Below, one piece after another: positions 13,733 through 30,763 of a stretch of DNA of 36,573 nucleotides. The position numbers were made by a program, and so were the translations under genes. The stretch's first letter is position 1. Every line of letters begins with the position of its first letter. Source of the DNA: an uncultured Elusimicrobium sp. (GTDB taxonomy: Bacteria; Elusimicrobiota; Elusimicrobia; Elusimicrobiales; UBA9959); NCBI GenBank assembly GCA_902783485.1, contig CACZRG010000011.1:1-36573 (forward strand). Reading direction: 5' to 3'. The notes beneath the pieces are model-generated. The model saw only the letters and a program-made list of their open reading frames with translations. It did not search any database and was not told the DNA's origin.

Positions 13733-14725
13733 TTATTCGCCTTTCTTCATGGCAGGAATCTTTATGGCATTGGAATAGCCTATATTTTCCAGTGAGTCAA
13801 CAGCAGCGGCACGTATATAATACATACTCGTTGACAGTTCACCTCTGCTGAAGGAACGGAAATATGGCGCACGGAAGAAATAACGTCCCACGCGCTGCCA
13901 GTCAAATTTATCGTATGATATTTCCAGCCACGCTGCGCGCACATCCTCACCTACAGCCGTAAAAAATGTATCTATCTGTTCATCGCTTACCTGGGCGTAA
14001 AAGCCCTTTATGACCACTTTAAAGTCATTCTGCGGTACAAGTTTTATGGCTATGGCGGGTTTTAATCCGGAAACAGGAGTTTCCAGCGCTGTTTCACCTG
14101 ACGGTGGCGCACCCTTTATTGAGCGGGTAAGCCACACATTTTCCATACCGTCATCACTCATTGCAGCTGCCACTATGGGCGCGGAGGACGATGTAACAAA
14201 ATCCTTGCCGGAAGACCATAAGGCTATGTAATTGTTATCGGTTTTTGAAACCTTGGATATAGGCACAGGTGTCCAGAACCACTGCGCGGAATCAACACCT
14301 TCAAGATAATCTCCGGGAAGCGGCTCAAGAGGCAGATCCTTCGCATCGGCAAGCACATACGAGTGCTCGGAGTTGAAGGAATATGTATTGTTTATGGCCA
14401 TATGTATTTTGCCCGGTATAGGAGTGCTGTCCCAGGAATTAGGCCATGATTTTATCTTTGCCCGGCCCAGCTTGGCCCCAAGATAGGCTTTTTTATATCC
14501 GGATGTATTTATGGGAGGAAGCTGTATTGTCCAGCAGTTATTGTATCCCACATACCAGTCCGCGTGAAATCCTCCGTCAGCATACAGAAAAAATTTTGAA
14601 AGATTGTTCTCGGCGGCTACATAAGCCGGTGTGGGAGAAGCGGCAAAAACTCCCTTCCCCTCCTGGGCAGAAGCTACTGAATGAAAAACAAGACCTGTCA
14701 GAAACGCCAGAATAATTTTTTTCAT
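13733..14725 (-). CDS. Hypothetical secreted beta-rich protein
   Basis: SD AAGGAG precedes ATG 14725; signal peptide MKKIILAFLTGLVFHSVASA-Q; 13 nt after the parB stop. Confidence 0.75.
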   Translation of the reverse strand: MKKIILAFLTGLVFHSVASAQEGKGVFAASPTPAYVAAENNLSKFFLYADGGFHADWYVGYNNCWTIQLPPINTSGYKKAYLGAKLGRAKIKSWPNSWDSTPIPGKIHMAINNTYSFNSEHSYVLADAKDLPLEPLPGDYLEGVDSAQWFWTPVPISKVSKTDNNYIALWSSGKDFVTSSSAPIVAAAMSDDGMENVWLTRSIKGAPPSGETALETPVSGLKPAIAIKLVPQNDFKVVIKGFYAQVSDEQIDTFFTAVGEDVRAAWLEISYDKFDWQRVGRYFFRAPYFRSFSRGELSTSMYYIRAAAVDSLENIGYSNAIKIPAMKKGE

Positions 14726-14738
14726 TTTAATTCTCCTT

Positions 14739-16031
14739 TTATTTCTGCACAATGGAAGTAATACGCTCAAAATCATCGAGCGAGTAATAACTGATGACTA
14801 TTTTCCCTTTCTTGCCGTTTGAGCCGGGACGTATCTCAACCTTCGACCCGAAATGCTGCGAAAGAACAGTCTGCATATTAATTATTTCCGGAGCCTTTCC
14901 CCGGTGCGGATTGTCCTGAACCTGCGCATTCTGCGGAAGTTCATAATGATAATTCTGTGCTATGGCCTCAACTTCGCGCACGGAAAGATTTTCTGCGACT
15001 ATGCGCTGAAAAACCTCCTGACGTCTGGCTTTGTCAGGTATGGAAAGCAGTGCCCTGGCATGACCCTCACTTATAAGTCCGGACCGCACTGCGTTTCTTA
15101 TATTTTCATCAAGTTCCATCAGCCGTAGTGTATTTGAAACAGCAGCACGCGATTTTCCAACAGTTCTTGAAATTTCCGCCTGACTTATGCCGAAATGATT
15201 TATAAGCTGCTGATATGCCATCGCGGTGTCTATGGCATTGAGATCCTCACGCTGAATATTCTCTATAAGAGCGAATTCAAGTTTTTTCTCGTCTGAAAGA
15301 TTCTCGCGGACTATGGCATCTATTTCCTTAAGCCCGGCAAGTTTTGCCGCACGTGTACGGCGTTCGCCGGCTATTATCTCGTAATAATCCCGGTCGGAAT
15401 CCTTCCATACGGTTATAGGCTGCAGCAGGCCACTTGTTTTTATGGACTCGGCCAGTTCCTGAAGTGCAGTCTCGTCAAATTTACGACGTGGCTGATACAT
15501 GTTCGGACGGATTCTGTCAAGAGGAATTTTTATAACGTTCTCCCCGTCCGCAGTCACTTTGGATTCCACAGATTCCGTATTGACATTTGCCGTAATTACA
15601 CCCACTGATTCCACGGCAGCAGACAACGGCTGCATTTTTTCTGACACATCTTTTCCTGTTTGTTTTCCCACTACAGATTTTTCTTCGGGGACAATTGTTT
15701 GGTTTTCATACTGTGTCTCCGGTTTGTTTTCATATGCAGGAATATCTGTTTCTGCCGGATAAACAACTGTTACACCTTCATTATCTTTTTTAGCTGAAAC
15801 AGGATTTTTTTCCGCCTTGTATGAAAGATCTGGAACTGTTTTTTCTGCCTTAACAGTCTGCTCTTCCGTATCAATTACAGGTTCTCTTACTGTTTCAGCA
15901 GATTTAATGCTTTTTTCTGCAGGATTCTTTTTATTATCAGCATTGTCCTTTTTTTCCGGCTGTTCTTTTACTTTCAGCTTCAAAGGAATGTAAAACGCAT
16001 CCATGCCTCGTCCTAAAACTTTTTTTGCCAT
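14739..16031 (-). CDS. parB: ParB/Spo0J chromosome partition CTPase with a long N-terminal linker
   Basis: LGRGM N-peptide, PNMYQPRRKF, GLLQPI, IIAGERRTRA, LIENIQREDL, HTH GKSRAAVSNTLRL, GHARALL. Confidence 0.95.
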   Translation of the reverse strand: MAKKVLGRGMDAFYIPLKLKVKEQPEKKDNADNKKNPAEKSIKSAETVREPVIDTEEQTVKAEKTVPDLSYKAEKNPVSAKKDNEGVTVVYPAETDIPAYENKPETQYENQTIVPEEKSVVGKQTGKDVSEKMQPLSAAVESVGVITANVNTESVESKVTADGENVIKIPLDRIRPNMYQPRRKFDETALQELAESIKTSGLLQPITVWKDSDRDYYEIIAGERRTRAAKLAGLKEIDAIVRENLSDEKKLEFALIENIQREDLNAIDTAMAYQQLINHFGISQAEISRTVGKSRAAVSNTLRLMELDENIRNAVRSGLISEGHARALLSIPDKARRQEVFQRIVAENLSVREVEAIAQNYHYELPQNAQVQDNPHRGKAPEIINMQTVLSQHFGSKVEIRPGSNGKKGKIVISYYSLDDFERITSIVQK

Positions 16032-16040
16032 GATATATCC

Positions 16041-16931
16041 TTATTTTTTCCTGTTTTTGAAAATTTTATGGATTTTAACAAAGAACTCTTTACCCCAGCT
16101 GTCTTCGCCTTTATATCCGCTGCCTGAACCAAGATTAATTACGGCCTTTTTATACGGCTTTATATCAAGTCCACGACGGGAAAGAAATTCAAGCGCAAAA
16201 TCCTTGTACGCCTTTGCGCCACGCGATGCATGGTCATACATAAAAATTGACTGTCCGAAACTTGGGGCTTCCGCAAGACTCACATTTCTTGGTATAACAG
16301 TTTTATACATTTTATCGCCGTAAAATCTGCTTATTTCCTCACGGACCTGATTTGCCAGATTTATGCGGGAATCAAACATCGTTATAAGTCCGCCGTCAAC
16401 CTTCAGATCAGGATTCATATACTCATTTATCTTCGAGACAGTATTGATAAAATAGGCCAGACCTTCCATTGAATAATACTCACACTGCACTGGTGTTATT
16501 ACAGAATCTGAAGCGTTCAGGGCATTAAGACTAAGCAGCCCCAATGACGGGGGACAGTCTATAATGATGAACCTGTACATATCTTTTATTTCTTCAATAG
16601 CCTTCTTGAGAAAGAACTCGCGTTCGTCCTGGTCCACAAGCTCTATTTCGGCCCCGGCAAGATTACGGCTCGTAGGCATTACATCAAGCCATTCAACGGA
16701 AGATCTGTAAATTGCCTCTGACGCCTTACAGTTTCCACAGAGGACATCGTAAACATTATTGCCATTCCCAGCGGTCTCAACACCGAGACCGGAAGTGGTG
16801 TTGCTCTGAGGGTCAAAATCTATAAGAAGCGTCTCAAAATTCAGCACCGCCAGTGCCACAGCAAGATTCATAGAGGTAGTGGTTTTACCCACACCGCCTT
16901 TCTGATTGGCTATTGAGATTATTTCAGCCAT
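16041..16931 (-). CDS. parA: ParA/Soj ATPase with a C-terminal extension
   Basis: NQKGGVGKTTT, IDFDPQSN, IIDCPPSLG, PVQCEYYSMEG, IPRNVSLAEAPSFG. Confidence 0.95.
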   Translation of the reverse strand: MAEIISIANQKGGVGKTTTSMNLAVALAVLNFETLLIDFDPQSNTTSGLGVETAGNGNNVYDVLCGNCKASEAIYRSSVEWLDVMPTSRNLAGAEIELVDQDEREFFLKKAIEEIKDMYRFIIIDCPPSLGLLSLNALNASDSVITPVQCEYYSMEGLAYFINTVSKINEYMNPDLKVDGGLITMFDSRINLANQVREEISRFYGDKMYKTVIPRNVSLAEAPSFGQSIFMYDHASRGAKAYKDFALEFLSRRGLDIKPYKKAVINLGSGSGYKGEDSWGKEFFVKIHKIFKNRKK

Positions 16932-16981
16932 TTAAATTCTCCGAATACTGCAAAAAATTTCAGGAAAGCCCTGACTTATTA

Positions 16982-17011
16982 ATTATATAGATATTTTAAA
17001 TATAGTGTCAA
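16982..17011 (-). promoter_or_regulatory. Sigma70-type promoter of parAB
   Basis: Minus strand TTGACA (17011-17006), 18-nt spacer, TATAAT (16987-16982), ~50 nt upstream of parA. Confidence 0.8.
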
Positions 17012-17549
17012 CGAAGGCAGGACCTGAATACACGGGACATTTCGGTATTTCTGTGTCCGTACCCGAAATTATGAACAAAAATGCCATTTAGGGCAAATAA
17101 AAAAACAGCAGGCAGGATTTCGCTGCATTTACTTTCTTGTAAACATTGTTGACATAAAGTAATGTAAAAAGTCAATAACTTTGCTCTGTTTAAACATTTC
17201 CATGCAAAAAATAATGATTGTTATTTCATTTGGTTAACATAAGTTTTATATAAATTATTTAATAATCTGTCTATGTGTAAAGGTGAAACTGAACAATATA
17301 TAAGAATTTTTGAAAAGATTATTTTTTCATAACAAAAATCTTCAAAATCAGATTTATAATTTTTTAATCTTTTACTGCATATATAGAGATTTTTTTCAAT
17401 ATTTTTTAGAAACACACTTATCTTTGCATAACATTAGCTCTTTAAGAAATATTGCTTCTTAGCAGATAATTTTACCTTAATAATTTTAACAAAATGTTTT
17501 AAATAGTTAAAAATAACACAAGGGAGACATGTTGCTTTTTTCAAATTAT

Positions 17550-17567
17550 TGTTTTCACGTGAAAACA
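17550..17567. promoter_or_regulatory. parS-like palindrome 1 (TGTTTTCACGTGAAAACA)
   Basis: Perfect 18-bp palindrome sharing the TTTCACGTGAAA core with canonical parS; near parAB. Confidence 0.8.
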
Positions 17568-17893
17568 TATACATATTTAAAAACAAGATAACCAACATTT
17601 GTTATGTAAAAAACATTGAATCCAGATTATTGTATCATACTGAAATTAATTCTCTTATCTTTATGTTTTAATTATTTTCTGAAATTATTTCAGGATGGCA
17701 AAACAAATATTGTTACCATTTATAAATATACAGTACCGATATTATATAGACAGTTTAAATTAATATTTTACTCATTTCAAACAAATTTAACAATAAGCAA
17801 AAAAAACAAATCAACCATAAATCTTTTAAATAAAACACAATCATTATTAAAGTTGATAAAATATTTTATTATAATACACTTAAACATTTTAAA

Positions 17894-17911
17894 TGTTTTC
17901 ACGTGAAAATA
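17894..17911. promoter_or_regulatory. parS-like palindrome 2 (TGTTTTCACGTGAAAATA)
   Basis: One mismatch to the 18-mer. Confidence 0.75.
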
Positions 17912-18295
17912 TAATTATTTAACAGTTCTGTCAAAGAGAAGTATTGACACAAATAAACAAAACCCACAGGTATTAAATAATCGTACTAATCATATTTCTG
18001 GATTTCATTAAGTCGTAGAGATAATGAAATAAATTCAGCATGATAAATAACATTATTTTTAATTTTTTCATAAAGAAATGTTTAATATTATAATAATTAC
18101 TTATTAATAGGATTGATACTGTATTATTTACAAAAAAACAAACACATTTGTTCTTAGAAATTAGTTCCCGGATATTATTACACATACAGATATTATAATC
18201 AATTTATGACATTACTATATCATTAAAATAATCCTTATTGTATACGTAAATTGTAAAAATATTAACAAATCACAGATACATTTTTCATTTAATAC

Positions 18296-18313
18296 TGTTT
18301 TCACGTGAAAACA
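18296..18313. promoter_or_regulatory. parS-like palindrome 3
   Basis: Perfect TGTTTTCACGTGAAAACA. Confidence 0.8.
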
Positions 18314-18653
18314 TTTCATTTTCTATATTACATTTTATATATGATACACCCGTTACAAATAAAAAACAATCCCTAATATTAATTTTATATATTTGACATG
18401 CTCTTTTAGAAATATCTATACTACATATTACATAAATGCAACAGTGTCATAACAAATTTATCTCAGAATTTCATTATGCATAGGAATGATGAAACAAACA
18501 GGGATAACGGGTGAATTCTAAAATTAACACCATTCTTTTATAGTATTAATTCGTACTCTATAAATACTTATATATGACCAAATCAAATTAATTTAATTTA
18601 TTTACAAACATTTTTTATCCTTAATTTATCTTTATAAAACAATATTTACACAA

Positions 18654-18671
18654 TGTTTTCACGTGAAAACA
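18654..18671. promoter_or_regulatory. parS-like palindrome 4
   Basis: Perfect 18-mer; the palindrome extends to 22 bp (18652-18673). Confidence 0.8.
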
Positions 18672-18922
18672 TTTAGCAACATACATAATTCATATTATAA
18701 TTAAACACTATCATAATTCTCACTTAATTAAATTTATATTCTAAAATTATTCCTATTTTGTTTCATTATTTTAAACATATTATTTTACTTAATTATTTAA
18801 CATTTCCTTCAAATAGCTGTTTATAAAATTACAATAATACAAGTTATTATTCCTTTGTCTATAGTTTGATAAAGAAATTTTGCATTAAACAATGCATTTT
18901 CTGACAATATTTAATAATTTAT

Positions 18923-18940
18923 TGTTTTCACGTGAAAACG
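18923..18940. promoter_or_regulatory. parS-like palindrome 5 (TGTTTTCACGTGAAAACG)
   Basis: One terminal mismatch. Confidence 0.75.
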
Positions 18941-18962
18941 TTTATATAACTTATCAAACCAT

Positions 18963-18994
18963 TTATTGACAAATTATAAACAAAATGTTAATAA
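18963..18994. promoter_or_regulatory. Triad of DnaA-box-like 9-mers (TTATNNACA)
   Basis: TTATTGACA-aa-TTATAAACA-aaa-TGTTAATAA; same arrangement as 29832-29863 (inverted). Confidence 0.55.
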
Positions 18995-19085
18995 TCTGCA
19001 CAACGTTAATTAATTAACGATGATAAAAAAACACAGACTTACTTATATTTACCTTATATAAATAGTGAATCTATATAATATAAAT

Positions 19086-19117
19086 AGAAAAGGCCGGATA
19101 TTAATCCGGCCTTTTCT
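19086..19117 (-). terminator. Intrinsic terminator of the SPFH gene (bidirectional form)
   Basis: AGAAAAGGCCGGAT-ATTA-ATCCGGCCTTTTCT. Confidence 0.85.
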
Positions 19118-19140
19118 TTATCAGAATAACAATTGTATTG

Positions 19141-19965
19141 TTATTTCTTTTCAAGCTGGATAAAAGGAACTGCACCACCATTATAGTAAGGCAGCTGTCC
19201 ATTCCATTTTTCAATGGCCTTTATCTGTGCTTCAACTTTACGCAGCTCAATAAGGCTTGGAGTTACAGCTTCACGCTGCATTCTCAAAGATTCAGCTTCA
19301 GCCCTAGCCTTAGCAATCTGCTGTTCGGCATCCTTCTTTGCTTTTTCAACCAGCTTTTCAGCCATCTTTGCCTGCTGTTCGGCAACCTGCTTGTCCTCAA
19401 CTGCCTTAAGGAACTGCGCTGAAAAATCAAGATCAACTATTGAAATATCAGTAACTATAATCTGTTTTTCATAAAGAACTTCTTTTACGATTTTATTAAG
19501 TTCCTCTACCAGCATTGAACGGTTCGTTATGATAGCATCCGCAGAGTATTTTGCAACTATGGATTTAAAACGCTCCTGAACCATGGGATCGACAATGCTT
19601 TTTACATAACCCTTGCCAAGATTCCTGTAAACAGATTCTACAGTATCCTGCTGTATGCGGTGATTCACTACAAGATAGGAATTAACTGTCTGAAGGTCTT
19701 TTGAGAAAGCCTGTGTTCTTATATCCGCTCTCTGTATCTGTATTGAGAACCTTACAATGTCCTCAAGCAGAGGAATTTTGAAATGTATTCCCTCACTGTA
19801 GGAACCAACTACGGCACCGAGGCGGGTTTTTACGGCCACCTCACCGGGAACAACAATAAAATAGGAAGACAGAAAGAGAAACAGAGCCGCTACGGCCAGT
19901 ACCATCCACGCCGTAACTTTCGAGGTAAAATTCCTCAGTTCTGCAAGATTATTCATATTTGACAT
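19141..19965 (-). CDS. SPFH/band-7 prohibitin-family membrane protein
   Basis: N-terminal TM; VVPGEVAV..G, EGIHFKIP, SKDLQTV, FLKAVEDKQVAEQ, AIEKWNGQLP; GGAGG SD. Confidence 0.9.
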   Translation of the reverse strand: MSNMNNLAELRNFTSKVTAWMVLAVAALFLFLSSYFIVVPGEVAVKTRLGAVVGSYSEGIHFKIPLLEDIVRFSIQIQRADIRTQAFSKDLQTVNSYLVVNHRIQQDTVESVYRNLGKGYVKSIVDPMVQERFKSIVAKYSADAIITNRSMLVEELNKIVKEVLYEKQIIVTDISIVDLDFSAQFLKAVEDKQVAEQQAKMAEKLVEKAKKDAEQQIAKARAEAESLRMQREAVTPSLIELRKVEAQIKAIEKWNGQLPYYNGGAVPFIQLEKK

Positions 19966-26499: not shown

Positions 26500-26907
26500 T
26501 TAAAGTCCTGATTCAAGCTTTATCGCTTTTATCCAGGGTTCACTAAAATTTTTATTAAGATTACGCAGTATTTCAGCGGAACGAAGACTCAGTTCGCTTG
26601 CCGCTACCGAAGACAGAGGTTTTACTATCAGACATGGGCCTTTTTTCATGGAACGTATTCCTATCAGCCTGCAGAACCGGCCAAGGAAACCTATTTCCCG
26701 GTCCCATATCTGATCGAGCAGCATAAGATTATCAATAGGAATGCCACCCATGAAAGAACATATATCATCTGGAGCAGATTCGGAATTATCCCTGTAAAAA
26801 CCTGTTTTTCCGGTGTTGTCTATTTTTTTAACCCGGATCATTCTTTTATAAAGATGCCGGTCCTCCAGAAAATTACAGGTTCCTACAGTCTCTTTCCTAA
26901 AAGCCAT
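26500..26907 (-). CDS. dciA: DciA/DUF721-like helicase loader
   Basis: Lies between dnaN and gyrB; W..EIG, L.V..SSVAASELSL...I...LN, IKAIKL pattern of DUF721. Confidence 0.65.
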   Translation of the reverse strand: MAFRKETVGTCNFLEDRHLYKRMIRVKKIDNTGKTGFYRDNSESAPDDICSFMGGIPIDNLMLLDQIWDREIGFLGRFCRLIGIRSMKKGPCLIVKPLSSVAASELSLRSAEILRNLNKNFSEPWIKAIKLESGL

Positions 26908-26920
26908 AATCAGAACGCAG

Positions 26921-28029
26921 TCAGCGCAGAGGCATTACTATATAAAGCGGTGTTTCGTCAGCCTGTGTTTTGAACAGGGCAGGTGTTGTTGCTGTCTTGA
27001 ACTGGCATACAACCTGTCCCGCAGGAATATTCCTGAGAATATCCATTATGAATGCAGGATTGAAACTTACCTGAAAATCCTCTCCCTCATAGGTAACCGG
27101 AATTTCATCTTCAAAATCCATATTCTGGGATGATGAATTAACAACTGCCACACCTTTGCGGAAAGTATACTGCACCTTGCCCCTGTCACTGGTACAGACC
27201 GAAGCGCTTTTTGTAACGGAAAGAAGTGCACCGGAATCAACCAGTACCTCAACCTCATGAGACTGCGGTATTATCTGTTCATAAGCCGGGTAGGAACCTT
27301 CAGTAAGTCTTGAGAGGAAAGATGTTCTTCCCAGAACGAAACCTATCTGATTGCTGGAAATACTCACCTGCATTACAGCATCTTCCTTAATTTCGGCGCT
27401 CTTTATATATTTGTTTATTTCATTAAGAATTTTTGGAGGAACAATAACGCTGAATTCCTGCCCGCTTTTCACTGATGCTGTTGATTTGACCGCAAGTCTG
27501 CGGCCATCAGTGGCAACCATTGAAAAAATGCCTTCCTTGTATTTCCAGAGCAGGCCGTTAAGGAATTGTCTGCTGTCCTCTGATTCAGTGGATGCTGAAA
27601 AAAGAGTGGCATTAATCATTTCGGAAACCTTCAATGCCGGAACAGGGAAAGAATGTGCCGAATCAATTTCGGGAATGGCCGGATATTCATCTTTTCCTGT
27701 TCCACCTATCTTGACACGTGATTTTCCACTCTGTATGGTTACACGGAAAGCCTCATCTGATGATATTGTAACTTCATCAGACCTGAGATTTGTCATTATC
27801 TCCATGAATTTCTTTATTGGTACTGTAACGCTTCCTGGTTCCACAACTGTCAGAGGTATAAAATGTCTTACAGCCATCTCAAGATCCGTAAAAACTATTC
27901 TTACTCCGTCACTTTCTGTTTCAATCAGAAGATTCTGCAGTATCGGAAGAGTTCCGTTCTTTACATTCATGCCTGACTGAATGGTCTGAATCTCTTTGAC
28001 AAACTTTCCTTAGAAGTAGTAATTTTCAT
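26921..28029 (-). CDS. dnaN: DNA polymerase III beta clamp; 1-nt frame break near the 5' end (intact frame 26921-27970)
   Basis: TLPILQNLL, TDLE, YPAIP, VATDGRRLA, SRLTEGSYPAYEQIIP, FNPAF, VMPLR; natural MKITTSKE start with GAGG SD at 28029 is out of frame with the body. Confidence 0.9.
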
Positions 28030-28144
28030 ATTCATCTTCCTCATTTAATGCATTGTTAAAAACGTTCATATTGTCAATGCAAGAGTAGTAAAATTTTAGA
28101 CAGGTTATTGAATATTGTCAACAAAAATGACAAATTCATGTTTT

Positions 28145-29734
28145 TCAGTTCAGATCCTCCGGGTTATTGACATCTTTTATCTTCTGGATAATCTTGTTCA
28201 GATAGTCCCTGACATAGATGTTTTTTTCCTCATTTTCCATTTTTTCCTTGGCGTGAAGTACAGTAGCATGTGACTTTCTGCCGAAAGCCTCGGATATTTT
28301 CTCAAGAGTCATATTGGTAAGCTTTATCGAAAGATACATTGCAACATGCCGCGGGAGTACAAGAGTATTATCCCTTCTTGAACTTAAAATATCCTTTTCA
28401 TCAACCTTATAATAGTCCGAAACAACCTTTATGATTGTTTTTATGCTTATTGGCTGATCACTTGCCGGAGAGCTGAAGAAAGGCCTCAGAAGTTCCTGTA
28501 CACTGTCTATGGTAGCCCTTGCCCCGGTCTGCATACAGAAATTGTGCACTGTACGTATACATCCTTCAAGTTCACGGCCACCCTTATGAACCTTCTCCGC
28601 TATAAAATTCACAATATCTATTGGAATATCAAATTTTCCCTGCTCAATTTTCTGGTTTAATATTGCTACTCTTGTTTCATAATCTGGCAGTCTTATATCT
28701 GCGACAATACCGGACATAAAGCGTGATGTGAGCCTGTCCCATAGATTAAGTTCCTGTGGGTGCCGGTCTGAAGTTATGACAATTCTTTTTTTTGAATTAA
28801 AGAGGGAATTGAATGTGTAGAAGAATTCCTCTACGCTTTTTTCTTTTGCCAAAAGGAACTGAACATCATCAAGCAGAAGACAGTCAAGCATTCTGTATTT
28901 TTCACGGAAAGCCTCTGCCTTTCTGTTTCCAACATCCCTGATGTATTCATTTACAAAAGTTTCAGCAGAGGAAAGAAGAACTTTTACTTTCGGATTTAAA
29001 CGGTAAAGCCCATGAGCTATGGCATTAAGCAGATGGGTTTTTCCCAGACCTGGCGCGCTGTATATGAAAAGAGGAGACTGATTGTTCGTAACAAGCGCCT
29101 GTGCCGCAGAATAGGCAAATCTGTTAGATGTTCCTGTTATGAAGTTCTCAAATGTATAAGCGGGATCGAACATTGGGTGGAACAGATTTGTGTCAGGAAC
29201 AGCCGGGGCTGCTTTTGCAGCTGCTGATTCCTCAGCCCTTAATCTGTCGATAGAGGGCTGCCATGATGCCGTAAGAATATTTTCCTGCCGGTTTGTCTGC
29301 TGCTGTAAATGCTGTGCCGCCTGCGGCTGCTGTATATTATTGTTATCTGTTCCGGAAAATGTGGCTGAAGACCTGTCTGATATGTTTGCCGGGTCTGCAG
29401 GTATTGATTGTTTTACAGGCTGAACATCATTTGATGAGGTAACTGTGTTTTCCGCTCCGTTTTCATCTTCCGCAATTATGTAAACAGCCGAAATTTCCTC
29501 TTTAATACAGAGTATGTTTTTTAGGAAATCTATGATTTTCCTTTCAAACTTTGTCTGAATTGTATGTCTTATCATGCTGTTTGGAATCCTGAGCGTGAAG
29601 ACATTGTTTTCAAATGAGACAGGTACTACCTGCCTGAGCCAGAGGTTCACTTTTACAGCGCCTACTTCCGGATCCTGCTGCAGAAATTCCAGCATTTCCT
29701 GCCATATATCTTTGAAATCTAAAGAGTTTTCCAC
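28145..29734 (-). CDS. dnaA: Chromosomal replication initiator DnaA (GTG start)
   Basis: Domain I WLRQV, YTFENFITGTSNRFA, PLFIYSAPGLGKTHLL, LLDDVQFL, RLTSRF..G, RELEG, domain IV RHVAMYL..FGRKSHATVLHA. Confidence 0.97.
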   Translation of the reverse strand: MENSLDFKDIWQEMLEFLQQDPEVGAVKVNLWLRQVVPVSFENNVFTLRIPNSMIRHTIQTKFERKIIDFLKNILCIKEEISAVYIIAEDENGAENTVTSSNDVQPVKQSIPADPANISDRSSATFSGTDNNNIQQPQAAQHLQQQTNRQENILTASWQPSIDRLRAEESAAAKAAPAVPDTNLFHPMFDPAYTFENFITGTSNRFAYSAAQALVTNNQSPLFIYSAPGLGKTHLLNAIAHGLYRLNPKVKVLLSSAETFVNEYIRDVGNRKAEAFREKYRMLDCLLLDDVQFLLAKEKSVEEFFYTFNSLFNSKKRIVITSDRHPQELNLWDRLTSRFMSGIVADIRLPDYETRVAILNQKIEQGKFDIPIDIVNFIAEKVHKGGRELEGCIRTVHNFCMQTGARATIDSVQELLRPFFSSPASDQPISIKTIIKVVSDYYKVDEKDILSSRRDNTLVLPRHVAMYLSIKLTNMTLEKISEAFGRKSHATVLHAKEKMENEEKNIYVRDYLNKIIQKIKDVNNPEDLN

Positions 29735-29942
29735 AATGTGTTAATAAAATGTTGATAAAAAAATCTGAAAAAACCAATATTTTTTTATCTGTACCAAAAA
29801 ATCAGTTTCTTTTTGCCGTCTGTTATGAAAATTATTAACTGAATGTTTATAAATTGTCAATAACTTTCTTCGTAAATCAGTAAACATATTACACAGTCAG
29901 CCTTTATATGAATAATATAAATTATAACCTTAATTAGTCAAT
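29727..29942. promoter_or_regulatory. Probable oriC / dnaA promoter region with DnaA-box-like sites
   Basis: TTTTCCACA 29727-35, TGTTAATAA 29739-47, TGTTGATAA 29750-58, TTATTAACT 29832-40, TGTTTATAA 29844-52, TGTCAATAA 29855-63; AT-rich; gene orientation and by-eye G/C bias switch near here. Confidence 0.65.
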
Positions 29943-29971
29943 AAAAAAGACACCTCAACAGTGTCTTTTTT
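29943..29971 (-). terminator. Intrinsic terminator insulating the dnaA promoter from the DUF2064 gene
   Basis: AAAAAAGACAC-CTCAACA-GTGTCTTTTTT. Confidence 0.75.
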
Positions 29972-30010
29972 ATGGCTTTAAACGGCCGTAATAATACCAA
30001 TAAGGGCTGT

Positions 30011-30703
30011 TTACTGCTTTTTTTGAGTATTTTCATTACCGGGGTCAGCAGAGGCCTTTATTTCCGTATTCTTTTTTGAAACAGGTATTTTTTTCCCGGA
30101 GTTCCATTTTTTCAGTGATTCATTATCTTTTACCTGGAAACAGGTTCCTGTTTCAAAAACTGCAAGTTTGGCTTTTTTTAATCTGTCCCGCAGTATTTCA
30201 CCGCTTTTTGAAAAAGTGAAGCCTGGAGCATCAAGAACCTTCAGGTTTGACTGTGTCAGGCCTAAAAGATAAAATGAACCGTCATCATTGAGTCCCAGTG
30301 CGGCTGTTCTGTCGTTAATGGCACTGAAGGCTTCGTCAAAGAAAGAAGTCTTTACATCAGGTGTCATTGGATCTATAAGAATGGCTTTTTTTGCGCCTGT
30401 GAAGAAAGCAAGGCGGAAAGTGTTGCGTATGCGATCCTCAAGACTTTTTCCTGTGTATTCCACAAAACCAGGATCATCGGCGTCCAGCCAGGTAAGGTCT
30501 GGTTTTTTTGATGTTTTGTCGTATGATATTATGGGTATGGCGTTGAAATAATGCTTTACCTTTCTGTATGCAAGGGAAATAAGGTCCCTGTAAAGGTTTT
30601 TGGCTTCCTCAAGTCCGAAATTTTCTTTAAGATCCTTTCTTATTTTTGAGTCTTCAACAGGTTCAATAAAAAGGAGAATGCAGTTATCTCTGTTTTTTTC
30701 CAT
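30011..30703 (-). CDS. DUF2064 / GT-A-like transferase homologue (degenerate motifs)
   Basis: L...G.EEAKNLYRDL, TGKSLEDRIRNTF, AILIDPMTP, LGLNDDGSFYLLG resemble DUF2064; the usual DVD motif appears as QVK. Confidence 0.65.
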   Translation of the reverse strand: MEKNRDNCILLFIEPVEDSKIRKDLKENFGLEEAKNLYRDLISLAYRKVKHYFNAIPIISYDKTSKKPDLTWLDADDPGFVEYTGKSLEDRIRNTFRLAFFTGAKKAILIDPMTPDVKTSFFDEAFSAINDRTAALGLNDDGSFYLLGLTQSNLKVLDAPGFTFSKSGEILRDRLKKAKLAVFETGTCFQVKDNESLKKWNSGKKIPVSKKNTEIKASADPGNENTQKKQ

Positions 30704-30763
30704 ACATTAAAATTATATCATTTAAGTTAGAAGCGTTTTTATATTCTGGAACACGGTGAAAAA

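Follow-up and report, generated by a model that had tools for sequence, protein, structure and literature searches.

A long-armed, clade-specific form of parS as the very probable chromosomal centromere of an Elusimicrobiales bacterium

Five palindromes in a gene-free tract beside parAB

A 36,573-nucleotide contig of an uncultured Elusimicrobium sp. from the order Elusimicrobiales (GenBank assembly GCA_902783485.1, contig CACZRG010000011.1, positions 1 to 36,573 of the forward strand) encodes a ParA–ParB pair, and immediately upstream of the pair lies a long, AT-rich, gene-free tract that holds five copies of a palindrome resembling parS, the centromere site of ParABS systems (Table 1). This whole stretch is referred to here as the window. 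The tract is bounded by the start of parA (16931) on one side and by the stop of an SPFH gene (19141) on the other, and the longest stop-free run inside it spans 98 codons. The two longest open reading frames (ORFs) of the tract match no family in Pfam and look low-complexity in composition, including a 96-codon frame that is so. A search of positions 16500-19500 against Rfam returned no RNA family, the sub-threshold matches all falling on the terminator hairpin at about 19.04-19.2 kb.

Table 1. Positions of the palindromes, the surrounding tract and the neighboring genes in the window
Feature	Position	Strand	Description
parB	14739-16031	-	430 aa; Pfam ParB_N, HTH_ParB, ParB_C
parA	16041-16931	-	296 aa; ParA/MinD-type P-loop ATPase; Pfam ParA/AAA_31
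Gene-free AT-rich tract	16932..19140	no strand	2,209 bp; 22.4% GC vs 43.4% for the window; holds the five sites
Sigma-70-like promoter	16982..17011	-	TTGACA, 18 nt, TATAAT; 12/12 consensus matches; 51 bp upstream of the parA start
parS-like palindrome 1	17550..17567	no strand	perfect TGTTTTCACGTGAAAACA
parS-like palindrome 2	17894..17911		last-but-one base C to T in the right arm (..GAAAATA); 14-bp inner core intact
parS-like palindrome 3	18296..18313	no strand	perfect TGTTTTCACGTGAAAACA
parS-like palindrome 4	18654..18671	no strand	perfect TGTTTTCACGTGAAAACA
parS-like palindrome 5	18923..18940		outermost base A to G only; 16-bp core intact
SPFH gene terminator	19086..19117	-	G+C-rich hairpin, then a T run; bounds the tract
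SPFH/Band-7 gene	19141-19965	-	neighbor on the far side of the tract
dnaA	28145..29734	-	origin-region marker; start ~11.5 kb from the array

The 18-mer TGTTTTCACGTGAAAACA occurs five times in the window at up to two mismatches, against 0.01 copies expected by chance, and none of 100 shuffled sequences gave five. Start-to-start spacings are 344, 402, 358 and 269 bp. Both the positions and the spacings agree with a preliminary description of this DNA, which had proposed the array as a lineage-specific centromere. Each palindrome has the architecture of parS, an inverted repeat around CACGTG with T-rich and A-rich arms that end in G and C (halves GTTTTCAC|GTGAAAAC). The 16-bp core is perfect in four of the palindromes, and one palindrome has a single arm mismatch.

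These sites depart from parS at the ends of the arms. The consensus of canonical chromosomal parS is TGTTNCACGTGAAACA, and main-chromosome sites in the same compilation are of the GTTNCACGTGNAAC type (Table 1 of PMC7022226). The half-site in the window reads GTTTYCAC against the canonical GTTNCAC, placing the outer guanine 1 bp further from the dyad in both arms, exactly as the preliminary description had it. Aligned on their centers, the two sites share 12 of 16 positions, the inner 12 bp (TTYCACGTGRAA) being identical, and differ at the other 4; a search of the window for the canonical site TGTTTCACGTGAAACA at up to three mismatches therefore finds nothing, again as described earlier. The size of the unit needs revision. 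Its outermost T/A varies among relatives (AGTTTT.., GGTTTT..), so that the conserved unit is the 16-mer GTTTTCACGTGAAAAC.

Within the genome the site is confined to the array. The assembly searched comprises 1,946,186 bases in 256 contigs (the window being contig C11) and is 86% complete. At up to two mismatches the 18-mer occurs only as the five array copies, and the inner 14-mer TTTTCACGTGAAAA also has five genomic copies, all of them in the array. As expected of parS, the copies are few and clustered, lying within 1.4 kb of one another near parAB and the origin, with the nearest at least 619 bp upstream of parA; the possibility raised with the preliminary description, that the motif might be scattered, is thus not borne out. 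The canonical 16-mer has no match in the whole assembly at zero or one mismatch and four matches at two mismatches. Among viral contigs, ten carry the variant 16-mer in a single copy each, which is about chance level by a rough estimate of the size of the collection.

The array shows no internal regularity beyond the palindromes themselves. A tandem-repeat search of the array found no repeated unit, so that the array is not the product of recent tandem duplication, and in an alignment of the five 120-bp site contexts essentially the palindrome columns alone are invariant. Taken modulo a helical repeat of 10.5 bp, the spacings leave remainders of 8.0, 3.0, 1.0 and 6.5 bp, with no common phase.

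Conservation of the array among close relatives

Four array regions of relatives were compared with that of the window. Sister genome G001, from the same genus, has a similar tract upstream of parA (19-24% GC) that reaches the end of its contig and contains three sites with spacings of 528 and 642 bp. The parA genes of the two genomes are 78.7% identical; beyond parA, alignment is limited to the palindromes and some weak AT-rich stretches. Genomes of genus g4, which have a GC content of about 55-60%, carry either four perfect 18-mers within 540 bp (spacings 191, 140 and 189) or three (110 and 502), and their site regions show a mild GC dip only, with no AT-rich tract.

Multiple sites upstream of parA are thus a family-level feature, and the 2.2-kb AT-rich tract is, among the four regions compared, confined to the genus of the window. 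Inside this tract, which evolves fast, nothing but the palindromes is conserved. The spacings are not conserved between these genomes, and with no helical phase and no tandem unit in the window either, the quasi-periodic platform of the preliminary description finds no support.

Distribution of the two site types in the phylum

Variant and canonical patterns were searched in the same 301 Elusimicrobiota genomes, with reversed-pattern controls that came out near zero in both searches. Genomes, genera, families, contigs and ParB loci carry our own labels (G, g, f, C and L). The variant core GTTTYCACGTGRAAAC is present in 98 of the genomes and is concentrated in five families: f1 (16/22), f2 (68/88, including all 62 genomes of genus g17), f6 (2/4), f7 (1/1) and f8 (9/26). 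It is absent from f4, f5 and f9-f13 of the same class, and in other classes it was found in one genome only (G245; f15, 1/89). The lineage-specific character claimed for the site is therefore upheld, with families f1, f2, f6, f7 and f8 and this single bin, treated below, accounting for all occurrences.

The canonical site TGTTNCACGTGNAACA is present in 89 genomes, among them 39/89 in f15, 10/11 in f18, 3/4 in f9, 2/2 in f10, 2/3 in f11, 2/5 in f4 and 2/3 in f5, with others elsewhere. Inside the variant families it is rare, being found in three of 22 f1 genomes (all three genomes of genus g12), one of 88 f2 genomes (G047) and two of 26 f8 genomes (genus g46).

Most variant-clade genomes that lack an exact match have near-variants beside parB. 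One of these, GTTTTCATGTGAAAAC, lies beside parB in genera g14, g18, g19, g22 and g9. An asymmetric derivative, GTTTTCACGAGTAAAC, occupies this place in genus g37 of family f8 (L111, L112 and L115), where no exact variant or canonical site is found and the helix-turn-helix (HTH) of ParB reads N283, T285, K295 and S299 in the numbering of the window protein. Hybrid sites of the form GTTTTCACGTGAAAC, with one long and one canonical arm, adjoin parB in G004 (two sites, C98:30532-30614), G031 (C17:4673), G125 (C2:110397), G241 (C99:10776) and two f6 genomes (L113 and L116). Such hybrids could represent intermediates in the evolution of the site, or they could indicate that ParB reads it in a relaxed way.

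Some genomes of genus g17 have unusual site complements. G047 has two perfect canonical parS sites 9 kb apart (C14:5625 and 14882) in addition to two variant sites, and the canonical pair sits on a contig other than the one with the variant-type parB; that contig could derive from a plasmid, or from an integrated element, that brings its own partition system. G053, G057, G163, G173 and G314 have 7-11 exact variant cores, against 2-4 in most g17 genomes, and those of G173 are spread over several contigs.

Positional homology beside parB

To relate the site types to ParB, the ParB loci of 59 genomes were fetched and their 1.5-kb flanks scanned for exact sites. At 20 of 25 variant loci, parB has an exact variant site within 1.5 kb, and at 17 of 34 canonical loci it has an exact canonical site within this distance. 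The canonical sites of g12, g46 and other families are parA-proximal, like the variant sites of their sister genera, and the two site types thus occupy the same position.

Bin G245 offers a comparison within a single assembly. It contains two parB loci, L066 (C38) and L093 (C196). One encodes an f15-type ParB beside a canonical site, and the other an f2-type ParB beside three variant sites. Because this second ParB groups with f2 genus g14 (support 95), the bin is either mixed or contains a transferred partition locus; in either case, site type follows ParB type.

ParB residues that track the site type

The ParB of the window is a conventional member of its family in domain content, with a ParB_N domain containing the GERR box, an HTH, a C-terminal dimerization domain and an N-terminal LGRG peptide (MAKKVLGRG), and with ParA encoded adjacent to it. 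It matches solved Spo0J/ParB structures with E values of 1e-39 to 1e-49. ParB of this type is the only ParB at E <= 1e-20 in most genomes searched, which identifies it as the segregation ParB and not a paralog. Its HTH contains S283, Q284, A285, GKSR at 292-295, S299 and N300. Residue numbers of the window protein equal those of Caulobacter ParB plus 122 (N300 = N178, G323 = G201, R326 = R204, Q284 = Q162).

The Caulobacter crescentus ParB DNA-binding domain has been co-crystallized with parS, and the reported parS contacts involve Q162, G170, K171, S172, R173, N178, G201 and R204, with R173 reading guanine 1 and reported as 'absolutely conserved' (PMC7383237). The window ParB has all of these contacts, with R295 as the equivalent of R173. 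Across an alignment of 60 ParB sequences, labeled as variant (26) or canonical (34) from genome site counts and local matches, four positions of the HTH separate the two groups to different degrees (Table 2). The partial ParB of G256 and all weaker paralogs were left out of this alignment.

Table 2. Residues of the ParB helix-turn-helix in proteins labeled by site type
Residue (Caulobacter number)	Variant (n=26)	Canonical (n=34)
283 (161)	S 17, T 4, N 4, A 1	T 32, other 2
285 (163)	T 11, S 7, A 5, other 3	E 25, D 4, G 3, A 2
295 (R173)	K 20, R 6	R 34
299 (177)	S 26	A 26, S 6, T 2

Every position that changes either is a known DNA contact or adjoins one, residue 299 lying next to N178 and residue 285 next to Q162, and the base that has shifted in the site is the guanine read by residue 173. 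Serine 299 is likewise invariant in the further variant-clade ParBs with a readable HTH. At positions 283, 285, 295 and 299 the window ParB reads S, A, R and S, g12 reads T, G, R and A, and g46 reads T, A, R and A. Comparison supports the view that the variant site goes with a re-tooled recognition surface of ParB, in which serine replaces alanine at 299, the acidic residue at 285 is lost and, across most of the clade though not in the genus of the window, lysine takes the place of arginine at 295.

The base just outside the guanine also differs with residue 295, being T in 24 of 28 half-sites that belong to ParBs with R295; ParBs with K295 account for 118 half-sites, of which 66 have A and 37 have T. 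This is suggestive of a second layer of co-variation, but it involves very few lineages and no claim is made for it.

The window ParB also contains a low-complexity linker rich in K, E, T and V (~145 aa, residues ~14-160) between the LGRG peptide and ParB_N, and the length of the protein, 430 aa, is due to this insertion. The linker is common to G001 only, a genome of the same genus whose ParB aligns over residues 1-430. Other relatives match the window ParB only from about residue 117-168 onward and have mostly open frames of about 285-335 aa.

ParB phylogeny

In the ParB tree, families f1, f2, f6, f7 and f8 form one clade of 31 rows with a Shimodaira–Hasegawa-like approximate likelihood ratio (SH-aLRT) support of 100. 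This clade unites all 26 variant rows with the five canonical rows of g12 and g46. Genus g12 nests within f1 (supports 85 and 93), and g46 branches as the sister of the remaining f8/f7 rows (support 93). Both genera, inside the variant clade, combine canonical sites with T283, R295 and A299. Constraining all variant rows to one group lowers the log-likelihood by 44.5 units, with a p value of 0.026 in the approximately unbiased test for a group that was defined after the tree had been seen. A sign test on independent pairs, relating site type to ParB residues, has only three contrasts (one on well-supported branches) and therefore cannot reach significance.

The palindromes as probable centromere sites

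Taken together, the five palindromes very probably serve this Elusimicrobiales bacterium as its chromosomal centromere (parS), in a form specific to its clade. There is a strong basis for this assignment: the sites occur nowhere else in the genome, are found next to parAB and close to the origin, occupy the position of canonical parS in sister lineages, are the sole conserved elements of their tract and track the type of ParB. The genome also offers no canonical parS that could serve instead. Against the assignment stands the completeness of the genome, which at 86% means that a canonical site may lie on unassembled DNA.

Characterized ParABS systems share a common mode of action, in which ParB binds CTP and becomes a clamp that slides along DNA, and ParA is stimulated by the N-terminal peptide of ParB. 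By analogy, ParB dimers would use the HTH to dock on each palindrome; once CTP is bound at the GERR box, they would close as clamps and move by sliding into the gene-free DNA on either side. With five such loading sites in 1.4 kb, a single dense partition complex would form about 11.5 kb from dnaA, and ParA would act on this complex through the LGRG peptide. That a need for a transcription-free sliding platform is the reason for the gene-free 22% GC tract in this genus is only a guess.

A shifted specificity or a relaxed one

How the long arm came to be read is a separate question, and our answer to it is more tentative. In the window's order and three further families of its class, the guanine may have moved 1 bp outward in each half-site through A177S, loss of E163 and, mostly, R173K, with the hybrids as surviving intermediates and two lineages having reverted in both site and protein. 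We regard this course of events as quite possible, though short of probable. The residue changes at or next to DNA contacts track the site, and the altered ParB specificity of the preliminary description is to that extent supported by comparison.

Several observations weigh against a strict switch. Since hybrid sites adjoin their parB, at least some ParBs in the clade appear to tolerate both arm lengths. Serine 299 cannot be sufficient, because the canonical-site families f15 and f9 have S or T at this position, and K295 cannot be necessary, because the window genome, g4, g18 and g21 keep R295. The co-variation moreover reflects few independent events: the fewest site-type changes on the best tree number three, of which only one is forced by well-supported branches. 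The comparison fits a graded picture, in which the ParB of this clade would accept, and mostly prefer, a guanine one step further out.

The closest contender accepts the palindromes as the centromere but holds that ParB is merely relaxed on the outer guanine, the long arm being drift fixed in the lineage and the protein changes permissive or neutral. The hybrids beside parB, the R295 kept by the window ParB and the occurrence of S299 in f15 and f9 all agree with this explanation, as does the report of promiscuous intermediates on paths of specificity switching (PMC7383237). It is nonetheless somewhat unlikely, since hardly any genome has both site types, S299 is invariant in the 26 variant ParBs and the returns of g12 and g46 to canonical sites are accompanied by A299, R295 and T283, which would be unexpected of neutral residues.

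Other roles for the palindromes and the tract

The palindromes could alternatively be operators at which a different protein binds, perhaps one that controls parAB or the SPFH gene, perhaps a Noc-like paralog of ParB. Their CACGTG center is common, with 202 copies in the genome, and they lie between two transcription units in DNA with 36 promoter-like matches against 22.3 expected. We consider this role highly improbable. The sites take the same place as canonical parS of sister lineages, and their type tracks ParB even in the bin with two loci; no copies occur elsewhere in the genome, unlike Noc sites, and the protein has R295 and G323 in place of the Noc-type Q and R. The distance also argues against an operator: the nearest palindrome lies 539 bp from the sigma-70-like match at 16982..17011, which is likely to be the parAB promoter.

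The surroundings of the array point to an origin elsewhere. Positions 26500-30763 have the gene order of an origin region, with dnaA, dnaN, a DciA-like ORF, gyrB and gyrA; the DciA-like ORF has a weak Pfam match (E = 1.3e-4) below the Pfam cut-off. The cumulative GC-skew minimum of the window falls at about 28-29.5 kb, with the divergence of gene strands at about 30.7 kb, and the dnaA start has DnaA-box-like 9-mers on either side (29727 and 29750). The dnaA region is thus likely to be oriC, and the array is probably origin-proximal but not the origin itself. The tract was also examined as a candidate oriC with TTATCCACA, which we take to be the DnaA box consensus: of 16 matches in the window at up to one mismatch, none falls in 16932-19140, although this consensus may not be that of the phylum. 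An origin or unwinding element in which the palindromes serve replication, as a gene-free, origin-proximal tract of 2.2 kb and 22% GC might suggest, is accordingly very unlikely and was rejected because the tract has no DnaA-box-like 9-mer; dnaA, with the skew minimum, strand divergence and two box-like 9-mers, is 9-11 kb away, and genus g4 has the sites without an AT-rich tract.

Directly downstream of parB, a 347-aa ORF (13733-14776, minus strand) overlaps the parB end by 38 bp. Its N-terminus resembles a signal peptide, and it matches no Pfam family.

Comparison with known partition systems

The closest known system is canonical parS with its ParB (Spo0J), as in Bacillus subtilis and Caulobacter crescentus, which the window resembles in the inner 12 bp of the site, in the few clustered copies beside parAB near the origin and in the domain set of the protein. 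Relative to canonical ParB, the window protein has serine for alanine at 177 and lacks the acidic side chain at 163, while lysine occupies 173 in most members of the clade.

A precedent for a change in outer-position preference within the ParB-fold HTH is given by Noc and its Noc-binding sites (NBS) in Firmicutes, where guanine 1 gave way to adenine 1 through residue 173 and permissive neighbors (PMC7383237). The differences are clear as well. Noc sites are described as differing by base substitutions at positions 1 and 6, without a change in the length of the arm, and as lying chromosome-wide (PMC7383237), whereas the arms in the window are 1 bp longer and the sites occur beside parAB only. 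The window ParB is also not a Noc protein by its residues, with R295, T301, E306 and G323 where Noc has Q173, K179/K184 and R201 (Caulobacter numbering).

Joint divergence of ParB and palindrome is seen in the pair of Burkholderia cenocepacia chromosome II (gTTTATGCGCATAAAc, PMC7022226). Pairs of this type serve secondary replicons beside a canonical pair, whereas the variant described here replaces the canonical site on the main, dnaA-bearing chromosome across families. Myxococcus xanthus, with 22 parS sites in its origin domain (Table 1 of PMC7022226), likewise has several loading sites in one origin-proximal region; in the window, five sites occupy a dedicated gene-free tract of 22% GC, the Myxococcus xanthus cluster being compared here by its table entry only.

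Literature searches for the 16-mer, for parS or ParB together with Elusimicrobia or Elusimicrobium and for non-canonical spacing found no paper describing the variant.

Significance

Descriptions of the system give one parS consensus and an 'absolutely conserved' arginine for guanine 1 (PMC7022226, PMC7383237), and parS is treated as near-invariant across bacteria. Here, a large clade appears to have replaced the site of its main chromosome, and the guanine-reading position of its ParB is mostly lysine. Strict parS scans miss the centromere in genomes of this clade. Canonical, hybrid and long-arm sites, together with two apparent reversions, form a natural series in which the joint change of protein and site can be followed. 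If the proposed course of change is true, the clade would provide a natural case of a stepwise change of half-site length in a centromere-binding protein. Its ParB/parS pair would then be orthogonal to the canonical one and could serve DNA-labeling tools like those based on ParB/parS and Noc/NBS.

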